DNA of 64,000 nucleotides from a virus, in IMG/VR virus record IMGVR_UViG_3300017991_000051, positions 1 to 64,000 of that record, one strand, 5' to 3'. The notes below the pieces were generated by a model, which saw only the letters and a program-made list of their open reading frames with translations, did no database searches and had not been told where the DNA came from. The stretch's first letter is position 1; every line of letters begins with the position of its first letter. Positions 4,005-60,218 of the stretch are shown here, in pieces. A program made the translations under genes and the position numbers.

Positions 4005-5048
4005 TTATTTTGCTGCCAAGCGGCCGGCATCACCGTGCACGGGCCACCCGAAGTCGGCACGTCGCCACTTCATTGTATGACCGAGTTTTTCGATCACGTA
4101 CAGCTCCCTCGTGGGCAGACCCTCGTGGGTACGCCACTGTTCCCATAGGTGCGCAAGAAACACCTTCTTCACAATGCGCAGGGCAGCGAAGTAGCACCGG
4201 CCTTTGGGCCAGTCTTCCTTCTTGTCGTACTTCGCCCGCGCCTCATCGTAGACCCGGCGGTAGTGATAACCATCACCCGTCCGGATCAAACTCTCTGCGA
4301 TCTGATGCATGGTCACCTTCAACCGTGCGTTGTAGTGCAGGACTTCCCCTGCCACCGCGCGCTCAGCCGAGCGCCCGAGGGCAACGAGTTTCCCGTCCTT
4401 GATAAGCTGTCCGACGCTGACACCCTCGCCGAAGCGGGGGACGCTGACGAACAGTCGGTTCTTCTCCGTGTGGTAGGTGTACTTCTTACCGCCCTCGTCC
4501 ACGACTTGGGAGTGCATCCACTCGTCGGGCTCGCACGGAGTAACCTTCTTCGCCTTGATGAGGGCCTCTACGGTCTTGCCCCCGAAAGCTTCCTTCTTCG
4601 TGGTGAGGACATCGGAGTCCTGAGTGTACGGGTACTTCGCGTACTTACCATCCTTGTTCTTCTCCGCCTCGCGAGCCCACAACACCGGCGCATAGCCGGA
4701 GAAGCGCCACAACTTGCTGACGGTATCGGAACGGAAGATGTTGATGAGGACATACAGCTTCGCCGCCGAAAAGTAATCGATACCCTTCAGCTCCACGAGA
4801 TCCTCAACGATATGTACACCCTTCACGAGGCCGATCACGTCGCTGCGCAGAGACTTCTCCGTCTCCGCGAACTGCGTGAGGTACTTCTCCAACAGCGCCC
4901 TCTGCGCCGGGTCAGTACTGTCGTCGGCACCCTGCATGATCGCCCTTATCTGACTCTCGAGCCTGCAGCGATCCTTCTGGAACTGCCAGAATGTATCCAG
5001 CAGCGTTCTGGTGATGGCTCGTCCTCTATGCCAGTCCATGAATCCCAT
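4005..5048 (-). CDS. Nop-domain / IS110 C-terminal-like RNA-binding protein (TIGR-Tas TasA-like, no nuclease domain seen)
   Basis: coiled coil, then LKGID..SAAKL, SKLWRFSGYAP, YNARLK, YRRVYD, AALRIVKKVFLAHLW..WR..EGLP; about 110-aa insertion after SGYAP; no N-terminal DEDD/RuvC motif; GGAGG SD before the ATG at 5048. Confidence 0.7.
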   Translation of the reverse strand: MGFMDWHRGRAITRTLLDTFWQFQKDRCRLESQIRAIMQGADDSTDPAQRALLEKYLTQFAETEKSLRSDVIGLVKGVHIVEDLVELKGIDYFSAAKLYVLINIFRSDTVSKLWRFSGYAPVLWAREAEKNKDGKYAKYPYTQDSDVLTTKKEAFGGKTVEALIKAKKVTPCEPDEWMHSQVVDEGGKKYTYHTEKNRLFVSVPRFGEGVSVGQLIKDGKLVALGRSAERAVAGEVLHYNARLKVTMHQIAESLIRTGDGYHYRRVYDEARAKYDKKEDWPKGRCYFAALRIVKKVFLAHLWEQWRTHEGLPTRELYVIEKLGHTMKWRRADFGWPVHGDAGRLAAK

Positions 5049-5491
5049 TACTGATCGTCCTCCTTCTCCAACGTGACTGCACGCTTCTCCGGTGGAATTA
5101 CCAGACGCACGTCCCGCAGCCACTGCGGTTTGTAATACCCTTTGAGATGGTTCCACAACTCGACGACGTCGACGATGCTCTTCCCCGTGAACTCAACGTC
5201 CCACGCTGCCTCCCGGTGCGTACCCGACTGTTTGTTGCGTACCTTCCCCCAGCGTAGACGCTGGGCCGACAACTTCCTCCCGATCTTCTTCGAGAAGAGG
5301 TCGAGCGGAGAACAGTACGCGAATGCGATCCGGATCATTCCCTCCGGAATCGCTGGCGTCTCCTCCGACGCCTCCTTCGGTCCGATCGCATAAGCGGCGG
5401 TGATGATGCCGTTGTGCTTCGCCCCGTTCGTTCGTCCGAAATAGTAGTGACCGATCATTTCCTTTACTCCTCCGGTATCTTGCGTATCCAT
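5048..5491 (-). CDS. conserved phage hypothetical protein
   Basis: AFAYCSPLDLFSKKIGR motif of a kind seen in small phage proteins; start could be 5458. Confidence 0.55.
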   Translation of the reverse strand: MDTQDTGGVKEMIGHYYFGRTNGAKHNGIITAAYAIGPKEASEETPAIPEGMIRIAFAYCSPLDLFSKKIGRKLSAQRLRWGKVRNKQSGTHREAAWDVEFTGKSIVDVVELWNHLKGYYKPQWLRDVRLVIPPEKRAVTLEKEDDQ

Positions 5492-5703: not shown

Positions 5704-5862
5704 AGTTCCTCCTGAAAAGTGAAGGCCCGGCGGGCGTAACCCGCCGAGCCGTTTAGGTCCGCCCAGGCAAGATTCATCTCATTCCCGCGGTTGCCATCGC
5801 GGCTGAGGTCAGTTCATTCTGCGAGGCGGGGAGGCTTTGCCAGACCAACCAGCCCCGATCGT

Positions 5863-5900
5863 AAATAGGCCCGGGAGGTTTAATGTCGCCCGGGTCGACA
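5863..5900 (-). repeat. orphan copy of the array pseudoknot repeat
   Basis: minus strand tgtcga-cccggg-cgac-attaaacct-cccggg-cctattt, same two stems as the 7606-8771 repeats. Confidence 0.8.
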
Positions 5901-5987
5901 TCTGCGCCTTTACCTACGAATGCCACAACGTAGATATTGTCTGGTAAATAGGGAGCCCAGCGGGCGTGAACCCGCTGGGGTGAAAAA

Positions 5988-6542
5988 CTACTTGGCTGCT
6001 TTACGTACCAGCCTACGGAACAGCTTGTTTGCCTCTGCACGCACGCCCGCCAGCTCGCTGAGCGTACGATATTTGTTGATGAATGCCCGCAACTCGAGTA
6101 GAGCCTCATCGAGAACGTTGTAGCGTTCAATTGGGTCCGAAAGGCTCTGGCTCTCTGATGCGTACACACGGACCGGTCTTCCCGACCCACCAACCAACCC
6201 TGTATGGATCATCGCGGTTACGCGCCAGCTACGCTCTTCCTCTTCACCGTTCGCACGGATGACTACCTTCGTCACTGCGGCCATGATGTACTTGGCTTGT
6301 GACTCCCAGCACGTCTGTGCAGCTTGATGTATATTCCACGTGAACTCGGCGTGGAGCGGACACTTCGGATCCTTCGCCAACTCGACGACATCCCTCACAG
6401 TGTACTTCTTTTTGTTAGCCAGTTTGTCGATGAACTGACCAATCTTTTGGATATCGCCCTTGACGTGGTAGCCAGATCGCTTACGGTATTCGATACGCGC
6501 CCGGCGCCGCGTAGATTTCTTCGCCTTCTTCTTTGTAGCCAT
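5988..6542 (-). CDS. conserved partner protein of the phage Cas7/RAMP-like gene
   Basis: VVELAKDPKCPLHAEFTW...AA....QAKYI and ALLELRAF..KY..LSEL motifs; directly downstream of the RAMP-like gene. Confidence 0.7.
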   Translation of the reverse strand: MATKKKAKKSTRRRARIEYRKRSGYHVKGDIQKIGQFIDKLANKKKYTVRDVVELAKDPKCPLHAEFTWNIHQAAQTCWESQAKYIMAAVTKVVIRANGEEEERSWRVTAMIHTGLVGGSGRPVRVYASESQSLSDPIERYNVLDEALLELRAFINKYRTLSELAGVRAEANKLFRRLVRKAAK

Positions 6543-6610: not shown

Positions 6611-7360
6611 TTACTTCGCAGCCTTCTTCGTCAGCTGTGAAGGCGGCGTGAAGTAATGCAACGGAATCTCACCGTCCTTCTTCACGCGCGCAACCGCGTC
6701 CTTCATCTGCTTCTGGAACAGCTTCTCGTCCGCGGCGCCGGTACCGACATGGAACAGGCCGTACTGGCCAGTACCCGTGCTGGTCTTGCCCTGCGGGCGC
6801 CAGTCGCCGATCCCTACGTGGAAACCAGCGTGCTGGATCAGATTCAACACCTGTTCCTTATTCAGAACATTGGCGTTGAAGTTGATGGTCGCCGTGATCT
6901 TCCACGGCCAAAACTGCGGCCGGTAGCGAAGATCCATGACACCGCTCGCTAAGCGGACGGTATCCTCACGGCATGTACGCACGCCTTCGATATGCACCAA
7001 CGCACCCAGTGGGTCGTCGGCGTCGAACTGGACGAAGCACGCGCCCTTCGTCTGGGCCATGGCTACGCCATCGACGTACCGGCACGCCTCGATCATGCTC
7101 TTCTTGATGCAGATCGCGGGGATGCCGAAGCTGCCATCGGGAAACCAGTAGGTTGCCTGATGGTACTCCCCTTGAACGTCGCGGTCGGATTTGGCCAGTT
7201 TCGGCCAGCCCTGCTGCTTCGACCGAATGGAGTTCTTACTGGTGTCCGTCGGCTGGTTGGTGATGAGTGGAGAGTCACCGTACATGATGTACTCCGCCAT
7301 CTCCCGAACCATCTTCGGGACGTCGATTATTGCTGCTTGTTGTTTTGCTTTCGCTGGCAT
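6611..7360 (-). CDS. stand-alone Cas7/RAMP-fold protein (Vipr-like putative RNA-guided effector)
   Basis: N-terminal strand + GDSPLI, GIPAICIKKSMIEA helix, DLRYRP.F.PW, C-terminal Gly-rich loop AGFHVGIGDWRP...GQYGLFHV; GAAAGGT SD before ATG 7360. Confidence 0.8.
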   Translation of the reverse strand: MPAKAKQQAAIIDVPKMVREMAEYIMYGDSPLITNQPTDTSKNSIRSKQQGWPKLAKSDRDVQGEYHQATYWFPDGSFGIPAICIKKSMIEACRYVDGVAMAQTKGACFVQFDADDPLGALVHIEGVRTCREDTVRLASGVMDLRYRPQFWPWKITATINFNANVLNKEQVLNLIQHAGFHVGIGDWRPQGKTSTGTGQYGLFHVGTGAADEKLFQKQMKDAVARVKKDGEIPLHYFTPPSQLTKKAAK

Positions 7361-7488
7361 CGATGTACCTTTCGTAGTTGTAGGACCGCACAGAATCACA
7401 ATCGCTCCGCGCTAATCCAATAGTTGTTCGATACACTCGTCAACACCTGTACCCTGTAGCTTTACCTCCTTTCATTGGGTGGGTTGAG

Positions 7489-7520
7489 GGCGGAGGGACC
7501 AGATGTTACGTCCCTCCGCC
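7489..7520 (-). terminator. GC-rich hairpin closing the 3' end of the array
   Basis: ggcggagggac-N10-gtccctccgcc perfect 11-bp inverted repeat. Confidence 0.5.
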
Positions 7521-8846
7521 ATACTTACCTGAACGGGCCGGGCCGGACCTTGACTCGGCTAACCTTGCAACTGCATTCCACGCGGCTGACCAGCCTCCAT
7601 AGATAAGTAGGCCTGGGGTTTAGCGTCTCCCAGGAAGACACAACCGTCCTCGACGGGCCCCCGCCTGTCCCCTCATCACGGCGGCTAACAGCACCACGTC
7701 AAATCCGTAGCAGAAAATGGATCTGGGGTTTTGCGTCTCCCAGAAGGACAGAACAACACAAGGACTGACGAGGCCATAACTCACCGTCCTCACAGTAGCA
7801 GGCCTTACCCGACCCGACCTTTCCGTATCAGAAAAATAGGCCCGGGTTGTTTAGCGTCGCCTGGGACGACAAAAACTCACCCGACCTTTCCGTCATCAAC
7901 ATGCCGTGACGTTCGCCTACAAACGAGGCCACACCTTATCAAAATGAAATTGGCCTGGGGTTTTGCGTCTCCCAGGAAGACAGCACGAAACTAGCCCGAC
8001 AGTACCCGACACCAACCTAACTTACCCAGCCTCTACACGCGCAGCCGTGTCAAACGAAATAGGCCCGGGGTTTCGCGTCTCCCGGGAAGACAGGTACGTG
8101 GCCAGAACTAACCTCACGCACGACAACAGGCACGACCCGACCTGACCCAACCTGACCTCGTCAAAGAAAATAAGCCTAGGATGTTTAGCGTCGCCTAGGA
8201 CGACATCAACTCAACATACCGTGCCCGGCATGACCAGACTGCGCCGAACCCCGCCAAGCTGCACCAGGTCAAATGAAATAGGCCTGGGGTTTTACGTCTC
8301 CCAGGAAGACAAGTGGACGTACCTTGGCCGGCATTACCAGACCAAACTACGCCGCGGCAAGCCCGACCAAACCTCGTCAAATGAAATAGGCCCGGGGTTT
8401 CGCGTCTCCCGGGAAGACAATGCTCACAGCGCTATAGCATGCCGCAGCTCGCCCGAACAGGCGGCAACAGACCGAACCCAACGGCGCCCCTCCCAGCCGT
8501 GTCATAATAAATAAGCCCAGGGTTTTACGTCTCCTGGGAAGACAAGCTTTACGGACCCAGCCCGAACGTGCCTTACGAACGCTGACTTAACCAGCCTCTG
8601 CAGGCCGCCCCATACCTTAGCAAAGAAAGTAGGCCCGGGATTTAGCGTCTCCTGGGAAGACAGCTCGGGCCGTACCTTGCCGTCATTACCGTACTACACC
8701 ACGACTCAACTAGCCCGACCAAACCTCGTCAAATAAAATAGGCCCGGGATTTAGCGTCGCCCGGGACGACATACCCGTAACAAACCGAATCTTTCCATAG
8801 GCGAACCTACAGCGACGAACCCAGCCTAACCTAGTCAAATGAAATA
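7521..8846 (-). ncRNA. array of 12 putative guide RNAs built from GGY-NN pentamers, separated by 11 pseudoknot repeats
   Basis: about 40-nt repeats end (+ strand) at 7640, 7750, 7871, 7982, 8092, 8205, 8311, 8419, 8544, 8662 and 8771 (period 106-125 nt); intervening segments are 5-nt periodic, e.g. 8206-8270 minus: gacCT ggtGC agcTT ggcGG ggtTC ggcGC agtCT ggtCA tgcCG ggcAC ggtAT gttGA gttGA. Confidence 0.85.
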
Positions 8847-8847
8847 A

Positions 8848-8873
8848 GCCCGGCGGGCGTGAACCTGCCGGGC
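8848..8873 (-). terminator. hairpin + U-rich tail at the array 5' boundary; related hairpins at 5724-5750 and 5956-5979
   Basis: gcccggcaggttcacgcccgccgggc followed by ttatttcattt on the minus strand. Confidence 0.5.
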
Positions 8874-8960
8874 AGCTAACGAAGAGGCCCGTTCCAGGGT
8901 CGGTCTACCTCGCGTCACGGGCCAACGACACGACGTCCGATTGATTTTTGTACAGAGGAA

Positions 8961-9318
8961 TGGAGCCGCTGGGAGTCGAACCCAGGTCCGTTCGAGAGTC
9001 ACCTAGTGACTCATTCACGTGCGTAGTCGCTGATCTGTATACGGCTCATGCGACAAGCCTCTCACGTCTTTCCGTGATTGCCAGCTCTCCCGCTTTTACA
9101 CCACTGTGTTCGGGTAAGCATCCCACACAGCCGGCGACCCGATGTCGTCGTCAGCACCCGCTATCGGGCGTCACCGGGCTGACGATGGTGGCCTAAGCCG
9201 CCATAGGTAGTGCTTCGTTATCGGCACTTGAATGTTTCCGGATGTTTAACGAGGCCAACCGGAGTCCTCGGCACGCAATCACACAGATCCTTCTCGACGT
9301 CGAATCCATTACGGCCCC
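8961..9318 (-). ncRNA. ssrA: tmRNA, tag peptide (A)ADNEALPMAA
   Basis: 5' GGGGCCGTAATGGATTCGAC; 3' CTGGGTTCGACTCCCAGCGGCTCCA (CCA not encoded); tag ORF 9225-9193 GCC GAT AAC GAA GCA CTA CCT ATG GCG GCT TAG. Confidence 0.95.
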
Positions 9319-60146: not shown

Positions 60147-60218
60147 TGGTGGGCGGGGATGGATTCACACCACCGACCTCCGGGTTGTAGCCCGGCGCTC
60201 TTACTGAGCTACCCGCCC
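60147..60218 (-). tRNA. atypical tRNA (Val-TAC-like) with a 6-nt anticodon loop
   Basis: GGGCGGG/CCCGCCC-A-CCA acceptor, GCTC/GAGC D stem, CCGGG-CTACAA-CCCGG anticodon arm, T loop TGTGAAT. Confidence 0.75.

Follow-up and report, generated by a model that had tools for sequence, protein, structure and literature searches.

What is the element that closes each unit of a tandem array in an environmental phage genome, and how does it fold? The array lies within the first 64 kb (hereafter the window) of the 169,252-bp record of an uncultured phage with direct terminal repeats (IMG/VR IMGVR_UViG_3300017991_000051), where 11 units of 106–125 nt follow one another on the minus strand, each closing with a conserved element of ~45 nt. 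An earlier note on this DNA had described this repeat as an H-type RNA pseudoknot with compensatory changes in both stems, rather than a CRISPR hairpin, and had assigned to it the role of a cap. We consider it probable, at roughly 0.75, that this repeat serves as the invariant 3′ tail of the vrRNAs in a phage VIPR (Viral Interference Programmable Repeat) system and folds as an H-type pseudoknot capping the Vipr filament. VIPR, a CRISPR-like phage system for RNA-guided DNA silencing that was described only recently (2026 preprints), has been proposed to be older than CRISPR, and its loci comprise the RAMP protein Vipr, a vap gene and vrRNAs in which 9–16 YNNGG repeats precede an invariable 3′ tail (bioRxiv 10.64898/2026.04.26.720920).

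The tails follow the plan GUCK-U-CCYRGG-MGAC-(7–9 nt, with an invariant AAA)-CCYRGG, 28–30 nt in total, and the predicted pseudoknot occupies the first 28–30 nt of the conserved element. Its first stem (S1) pairs GUCK with MGAC over 4 bp, with a possible fifth U·G or U-A pair, and loop 1 behind its 5′ strand is a single nucleotide. The second stem (S2) pairs the two CCYRGG strands over 6 bp. Loop 3, between the 3′ strand of S1 (S1′) and the 3′ strand of S2 (S2′), measures 7–9 nt, and because no nucleotide lies between S2 and S1′, which abut directly, coaxial stacking of the two stems is possible. From what is generally known of H-type pseudoknots, the deep groove of 6 bp can be bridged by one nucleotide and a stem of 4–5 bp by 7 nt, so that the loop lengths of the tail are sterically adequate. 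The array and the tails, with their scores under a covariance model of the tail (R1), are as follows.

7595–8831, minus strand: array of 11 vrRNA genes, each with 13–17 GGY/NN pentamers, the pseudoknot tail and a U-rich linker
8743–8770, minus strand: tail 1, GUCG-U-CCCGGG-CGAC-GCUAAAU-CCCGGG; R1 68.1 bits
8634–8661, minus strand: tail 2, GUCU-U-CCCAGG-AGAC-GCUAAAU-CCCGGG; one A-C mismatch in S2; R1 62.5 bits
8516–8543, minus strand: tail 3, GUCU-U-CCCAGG-AGAC-GUAAAAC-CCUGGG; R1 61.3 bits
8391–8418, minus strand: tail 4, GUCU-U-CCCGGG-AGAC-GCGAAAC-CCCGGG; R1 69.6 bits
8283–8310, minus strand: tail 5, GUCU-U-CCUGGG-AGAC-GUAAAAC-CCCAGG; R1 67.0 bits
8175–8204, minus strand: tail 6, GUCG-U-CCUAGG-CGAC-GCUAAACAU-CCUAGG; loop 3 of 9 nt; R1 62.3 bits
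8064–8091, minus strand: tail 7, GUCU-U-CCCGGG-AGAC-GCGAAAC-CCCGGG; R1 67.8 bits
7954–7981, minus strand: tail 8, GUCU-U-CCUGGG-AGAC-GCAAAAC-CCCAGG; R1 65.3 bits
7841–7870, minus strand: tail 9, GUCG-U-CCCAGG-CGAC-GCUAAACAA-CCCGGG; one A-C mismatch in S2; loop 3 of 9 nt; R1 54.8 bits
7722–7749, minus strand: tail 10, GUCC-U-UCUGGG-AGAC-GCAAAAC-CCCAGA; C-A mismatch in S1; U-A in place of C-G as the outer S2 pair; R1 58.0 bits
7612–7639, minus strand: tail 11, GUCU-U-CCUGGG-AGAC-GCUAAAC-CCCAGG; R1 61.6 bits
5870–5899, minus strand: solitary 12th tail, GUCG-A-CCCGGG-CGAC-AUUAAACCU-CCCGGG; R1 49.5 bits

The first G of GTCT/GTCG in the array tails lies at 8770, 8661, 8543, 8418, 8310, 8204, 8091, 7981, 7870, 7749 and 7639 (minus strand), positions by which single copies are named below. 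A search with the motif GTCKTCCYRGGMGACG at up to two mismatches gave 12 matches against 0.8 expected, a number reached in none of 100 shuffles. R1 likewise found exactly 12 copies genome-wide, plus a weak echo at the hairpin of a neighbouring transfer-messenger RNA (tmRNA) gene, and no further copies were found in the whole 169-kb genome. The ~45 nt preceding the solitary copy (window 5870–5945) show no GGY/NN periodicity, making it a tail without a guide, perhaps a decoy, a regulator or a remnant. Along the array (7612–8770) the S2 haplotype is never the same in two adjacent units, and the G-C variant of S1 is found with three different S2 haplotypes; this pattern hints at recombination among the units or at selection against mispairing of neighbours within the precursor.

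On the 12-copy alignment, 97.5% of the cells of the two interleaved stems pair, compared with at most 55% when the partners are slid by 1–3 columns. Changes on both sides are seen in 4 of the 10 pairs (12 cells), one of them in S1 (columns 9–17) and three in S2 (columns 11–35, 13–33 and 14–32), and the covariation score of 0.273 was reached by none of 500 shuffles, which scored 0.119 ± 0.025. S1 occurs as GUCU/AGAC in seven copies and as GUCG/CGAC in 8770, 8204, 7870 and the solitary copy, with a C-A mismatch in 7749. S2 occurs as CCCGGG/CCCGGG, CCUGGG/CCCAGG, CCCAGG/CCUGGG, CCUAGG/CCUAGG and UCUGGG/CCCAGA, a set of variants that requires at least five events; the copies 8661 and 7870, with one A-C mismatch each, are natural intermediates on the path from CCCGGG/CCCGGG to CCCAGG/CCUGGG. 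In half of the copies (6 of 12) the 5′ strand of S2 is not palindromic and finds its complement 13–15 nt downstream, which argues for selection on pairing and not on a local DNA palindrome. For the S2 hairpin, folding energies range from −6 to −11 kcal/mol. Every stem variant that the earlier note had listed is present in this alignment, and its proposal of an H-type layout with both stems under compensatory change holds on these figures. The repeated element thus most likely folds into a small H-type pseudoknot, and we infer that S1 and S2 form together. A nested closing stem proposed by RNAfold, in which UGUC would pair with the linker sequence GAC(R), was rejected, as only 70.8% of its cells pair and no compensatory change is seen. 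The tails were also dismissed as a known RNA family or ribozyme, as Rfam gives no match for them, neither at the gathering score nor with E relaxed to 10.

The sequences between the tails, which in a CRISPR array would be the spacers, are periodic and related to one another. Their G autocorrelation reaches z = 8.6 at lags 5 and 10, phase-aware parsing yields a pentamer logo of G (0.79), G (0.68), Y (0.88) and two flat positions with 13–17 pentamers per unit, and the 'spacers' are 60–83% alike to one another over 93 nt. No cas1, cas2, cas6 or other cas family was recognisable among the neighbouring open reading frames (ORFs). The array was therefore rejected as a CRISPR array, because its spacers are periodic and mutually homologous instead of acquired and unique and no cas genes lie nearby. 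In this respect, too, the earlier note was right to set the interleaved fold apart from a CRISPR hairpin. The tail nevertheless recalls a CRISPR repeat or the crRNA handle of the Cas6-type hairpin in being a constant structured element beside a variable guide, at one end of a Cas7-family filament; it differs in that the fold is a predicted knot and not a simple hairpin and in that the guide would be read discontinuously, and lacking unique spacers and cas1/cas2/cas6 it is not a member of this class. A single exact scan of IMG/VR for a target, in which 10 units of the guide before tail 5 were used under a one-base-skip rule, gave no match.

The GGY/NN tracts are accompanied by a Cas7-fold Vipr homologue and a conserved accessory gene, and for these reasons we assign the minus strand between 5724 and 8850 as a VIPR locus, with 11, perhaps 12, vrRNA genes followed by vipr and vap. 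Its gene content is minimal, consisting of these two genes, which would agree with the earlier note's idea that Cas6 is dispensable. Downstream of the array the locus contains the following features.

7489–7594, minus strand: possible 12th guide, a weaker periodic tract read from the sequence, with G mainly at one position per pentamer (xG)
6611–7399, minus strand: vipr, 262 aa from a GTG at 7399 (gene callers: ATG at 7360, 249 aa)
5988–6542, minus strand: vap-type accessory gene of this Vipr clade, 184 aa
5724–5979, minus strand: non-coding stretch 3′ of vap, from sequence and a terminator scan

The product of vipr is a predicted Cas7-fold (RAMP) homologue of the Vipr protein from Escherichia phage SUSP1. 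A profile built from 31 homologues matches PDB 36pp_D, 'SUSP1 Vipr protein', with E 2.8e-12 over 176 of 200 profile positions, which is the sole solved structure matched, and the AlphaFold model (pLDDT 87.9) has its best Foldseek matches in Csm3/Cas7 of type III and type VII CRISPR. The protein has more than 120 homologues, belongs to phrog_4652 and to no Pfam family, and most of the 81 IMG/VR loci of relatives that were scanned have GGY/NN arrays on the strand that carries the gene. The 184-aa gene is a vap-type accessory gene with conserved synteny in this clade: tblastn places a homologue directly 3′ of vipr in ~60 related loci, and its protein has no similarity to SUSP1 vap1 and no Pfam family. 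The tract 7489–7594 ends in a plain 11-bp hairpin (7489–7520) and not in a pseudoknot, just before the ribosome-binding region of vipr, and is possibly a 12th guide whose tail is of another kind. The stretch 3′ of vap holds, in this order, a hairpin (5956–5979) with CCUAUUUAC, a short RNA with the solitary tail and again CCUAUUUAC, ~110 nt in which four pentamers only are found, and a strong terminator hairpin at 5724–5750.

The closest precedent for the fold is the type II VIPR tail of SUSP1. A pseudoknot was predicted in the SUSP1 vrRNA tail (10.64898/2026.04.26.720920), and cryo-EM has shown that it forms a cap at the 3′ end of the Vipr filament (10.64898/2026.04.26.720927; PDB 36pp/36pk), where the knot served as a register mark, the P. 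fulva complex being without it (10.64898/2026.04.26.720927). The tail is further treated as making an RNA competent for Vipr complex formation (10.64898/2026.10.15.759431). We compared the tails with those read from the sequence of the SUSP1 locus (KT454805.2), which are as follows.

GUGG-A-UGGUAG-UAG-CCAC-GUUAAAAAU-CUACCA
GUAG-UU-AGUCUCA-G-CUAC-AUUAAAA-UGAGACU
AAGG-A-UGGCAG-UAG-CCUU-AUAAAAAAU-CUGCCA

The tails of both phages lie directly 3′ of a GGY/NN tract, are invariant among the guides of one phage and follow the same order, namely S1 of 4 bp, a loop of 1–2 nt, S2 of 6–7 bp, S1′, an A-rich loop of 7–9 nt and S2′. In both, the stems covary between copies (SUSP1 possesses three covarying tail types), and the loci share the order of guide(s), vipr, vap and then further tailed RNA. 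A generic scan for this layout under strict rules recovered 4 of 4 SUSP1 tails and 8 of the 11 array tails against a background of 1%. In primary sequence, however, the tails are unrelated: R1 finds nothing in the SUSP1 locus, and the A-run of loop 3 alone is alike. The two phages also differ in that no nucleotide separates S2 from S1′ here, compared with 1–3 nt in SUSP1, in that S2 here is GC-only and nearly palindromic, and in that a terminator-like U-rich linker of ~15 nt takes the place of a ~35-nt spacer. Moreover, 11 guides stand in one upstream array here, whereas SUSP1 has 1 + 3; the Vipr protein of this phage aligns to that of SUSP1 in BLASTP with 36% identity over 47 residues only, and the vap genes are unrelated. 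By analogy with SUSP1, whose tails have the same stem and loop plan, we infer that the knot caps the Vipr filament in this phage, which agrees with the earlier note's suggestion that the element 'ends the filament', a role published for this family. ToxI-type antitoxin RNA repeats and exonuclease-resistant viral pseudoknots are likewise small tandem or terminal RNA knots that bind a protein or block exonucleases. They differ from the tails in sequence, size and context, and no toxin partner is present here, which leaves an analogy drawn from general knowledge.

Successive guides are separated by the U-rich linker CCUAUUUCAUUUGAC, and the distance from S2 to the next tract is ~17 nt. No sigma-70 promoter was found between the array units in a promoter scan; by eye, the linker contains TTGAC without a matching −10 element at the right spacing. 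The 5′ side of the array is bordered by two further features.

8958–9318, minus strand: phage tmRNA gene directly 5′ of the array (Rfam RF00023, 131.5 bits, E 3.5e-51; ARAGORN tag peptide ADNEALPMAA)
8832–8878, minus strand: GC-rich hairpin closing the 3′ trailer of the tmRNA, followed by the linker CUUAUUUCAUUUGAC, the same as after each tail; weak R1 match (19.2 bits, E 0.16)

The array thus begins right after the tmRNA gene, and the linker common to the tmRNA trailer hairpin and the guide tails suggests that the two are co-transcribed or that the boundary element has a common origin in both. Since the linker after the tails differs little from the tract behind the tmRNA hairpin and is also similar to those behind two other terminator hairpins of the phage, S2 plus linker resembles a weakened terminator. 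The likeness to the intrinsic (Rho-independent) terminators of the phage consists of a GC-rich helix followed by a YYUAUUUC-type tract, as after the tmRNA and vap. The tails differ from these in their 6-bp stem with a loop of 11–13 nt, in an interrupted U tract that starts 2 nt past the stem and in the extra interleaved stem, and a terminator consensus scan calls none of them because of this loop length.

In the scheme that we propose, each unit of ~110 nt would correspond to one guide RNA composed of pentamers, tail and linker. Vipr protomers would coat the pentamers, one per pentamer, and the NN dinucleotides would read DNA with a skip of one base. By analogy with SUSP1, the knot after the last pentamer would act both as a cap at the 3′ end of the Vipr filament and as a constant handle marking the RNA as a guide. 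The 3′ ends of the guides would be made at S2 and the linker by weak termination and/or by cuts of host RNases in the unprotected AU-rich linker, and the knot would then limit 3′ trimming. Given the lack of promoters between the units in the scan and the ~17 nt from S2 to the next tract, read-through combined with RNase cuts is favoured.

Several observations weigh against a pseudoknot that serves as a cap. S1 covaries at one pair only (columns 9–17), the other three pairs being invariant, and because the G-C copies also have GCUAAA (loop 3) and UAUUUU (linker) in common, this pair probably records just one or two events. The 12 copies are all paralogues of a single genome and related tails were not found elsewhere, hence the alignment holds no independent phylogenetic covariation. 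The S1 strands are furthermore extendable to a 6-bp hairpin (columns 6–11 with 15–20) that is 97.2% paired and competes with S2, nested folding favours this extended hairpin in three copies (8661, 8204 and 7870), and covariation by itself is unable to tell a knot from two alternating hairpins. One could imagine that the working element is merely the S2 hairpin with its U-rich tract, acting as an intrinsic terminator that ends each guide, and that GUCK/MGAC is conserved unpaired, e.g. for a protein contact. The nested consensus of RNAalifold, which is S2 alone, would fit this explanation, as would the placement of three of the four covarying pairs in S2, the three invariant S1 pairs, which are uninformative on pairing, and the match of the linker to the tracts after real terminator hairpins of the phage. 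We regard it as unlikely all the same, because the U-A to G-C double change at columns 9–17 is found in four copies and the change of G21 to A in the solitary copy keeps a possible fifth pair with U5. In addition, an S1 of the same position and length is found in three covarying tail types of SUSP1, where the knot was resolved by cryo-EM, and a 6-bp stem with a loop of 11–13 nt would be a poor terminator alone, in line with the negative terminator scan.

If the two stems instead alternated, a 5′ hairpin (GUCKUCC/GGMGAC, 6 bp) would form first as an anti-terminator permitting read-through of the 11 units, and S2 would form later in the processed guide. Some read-through is indeed required by 11 terminator-like elements upstream of vipr without promoter-like sites between them, and the extended hairpin is well paired and the nested minimum-free-energy fold in the three copies named above. 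Its extra pairs (10–16 and 11–15), however, show no compensatory change, pair 10–16 is broken in the solitary copy, the change of C11 to U in 7749 is compensated at column 35, the S2 partner, and not at column 15, and the precedent of SUSP1 is a formed knot, so that we hold such a switch to be quite improbable. The absence of obvious promoters of their own for the guides might also be explained by release of the guides from a precursor through a self-cleaving ribozyme, or through a CRISPR-type repeat at which a dedicated nuclease cuts; hammerhead-interspersed vrRNA arrays are in fact present in other VIPR types (10.64898/2026.04.26.720920). Against this stand the lack of an Rfam match of the tails even at E up to 10, their size of 28–30 nt, which is too small for known self-cleaving motifs, the lack of a recognisable cas6 or other cas gene nearby and the nature of the 'spacers' as mutually homologous pentamer tracts, which together make cleavage of this kind very improbable here.

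The reading of the repeat as a vrRNA tail with a pseudoknot cap faces a further objection in its distribution, as the arrays of close relatives have no structured tails, from which it follows that the knot is not essential to a VIPR system. The nearest Vipr relatives (the IMG/VR loci L061 and L108, Mycobacterium phage Saal and others) share 33–43% identity in Vipr, a homologous vap and GGY/NN tracts, and in L061 and L108 the array also lies upstream of vipr and its units end in a similar linker, AUUAUCWYUGAC. They differ in having no knot between the guides, which abut with a one-base phase shift or are divided by a short linker only, and the generic knot scan matched 5 of 138 tract ends against a background of 1%. 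The closest Vipr homologue (71% identity) is carried by a sole contig of 2 kb without an array. Run over 86 VIPR loci (SUSP1 included), R1 detected no related tail, and blastn of the phage collection for related tails found none. An exact-motif scan of IMG/VR returned single chance matches only, and a degenerate tail pattern gave 0 matches there. The 16 matches of this pattern in metagenome contigs were discarded, all lying within coding sequence and none with a pentamer tract. Second assemblies of the same phage are 100% identical and add no variation. By these searches the sequence family of the tail appears to be private to this phage.

In L061 (5467–5967) and L108 (2416–2670) the units are divided only by (A)UUAUCWYUGAC, which resembles the UUUCAUUUGAC linker of the array described here and makes this sequence a candidate for a shared processing or start signal. 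As a related linker ends the units of these two distant, knot-less relatives, the comparison suggests that the linker, and not the knot, is the older boundary signal. The knot tail is then either ancestral and often lost, or was gained more than once, and its likeness to a terminator of the phage itself speaks for a local origin. A possible though rather doubtful extension is that the knot tail was gained independently here, from a tmRNA-type hairpin and linker by adding an interleaved 4-bp stem, and was not inherited from the SUSP1 clade. Were this true, one element of 45 nt would have two functions, ending the transcription or processing of each guide and capping the Vipr filament, and a 3′ knot cap would be a convergent, mechanistically favoured solution for Cas7-like filaments on RNA.

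The kind of element described here is already known, and the idea of the earlier note, which did not identify the system as VIPR, is largely contained in the VIPR literature, in which the 3′ knot of the guides has so far been described for the SUSP1 clade of coliphages only. What is new is the private tail family, its occurrence in a Vipr clade that is very distant and in which most relatives are without structured tails, and the terminator-like U-rich linker. The picture of how VIPR works is unchanged by this locus. Finding the same knot plan in unrelated sequence and in a distant clade nonetheless supports the knot as a functional cap or handle and not as a quirk of one clade, and the locus supplies 12 natural variants with compensatory changes. 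As sister loci do without them, the tails are modular, and they offer a compact alternative handle for the engineering of VIPR guides.

Among the relatives, Mycobacterium phage Saal (NC_023580.1) carries a staggered GGC-type vrRNA array (L165, 2150–2400) directly upstream of its gene 51, running into the annotated start of this gene. Gene 51 ('hypothetical protein') encodes a Vipr homologue of 37% identity, and both the gene and the array are unannotated as such. Elsewhere in the window, a tRNA gene lies at 60147–60218 on the minus strand (Rfam 53.5 bits; anticodon not assignable by ARAGORN). Two genes downstream of vap, a 383-aa ORF (4005–5156, minus strand), which has no Pfam family, matches phrog_4285 'transposase' with E 3.7e-29.

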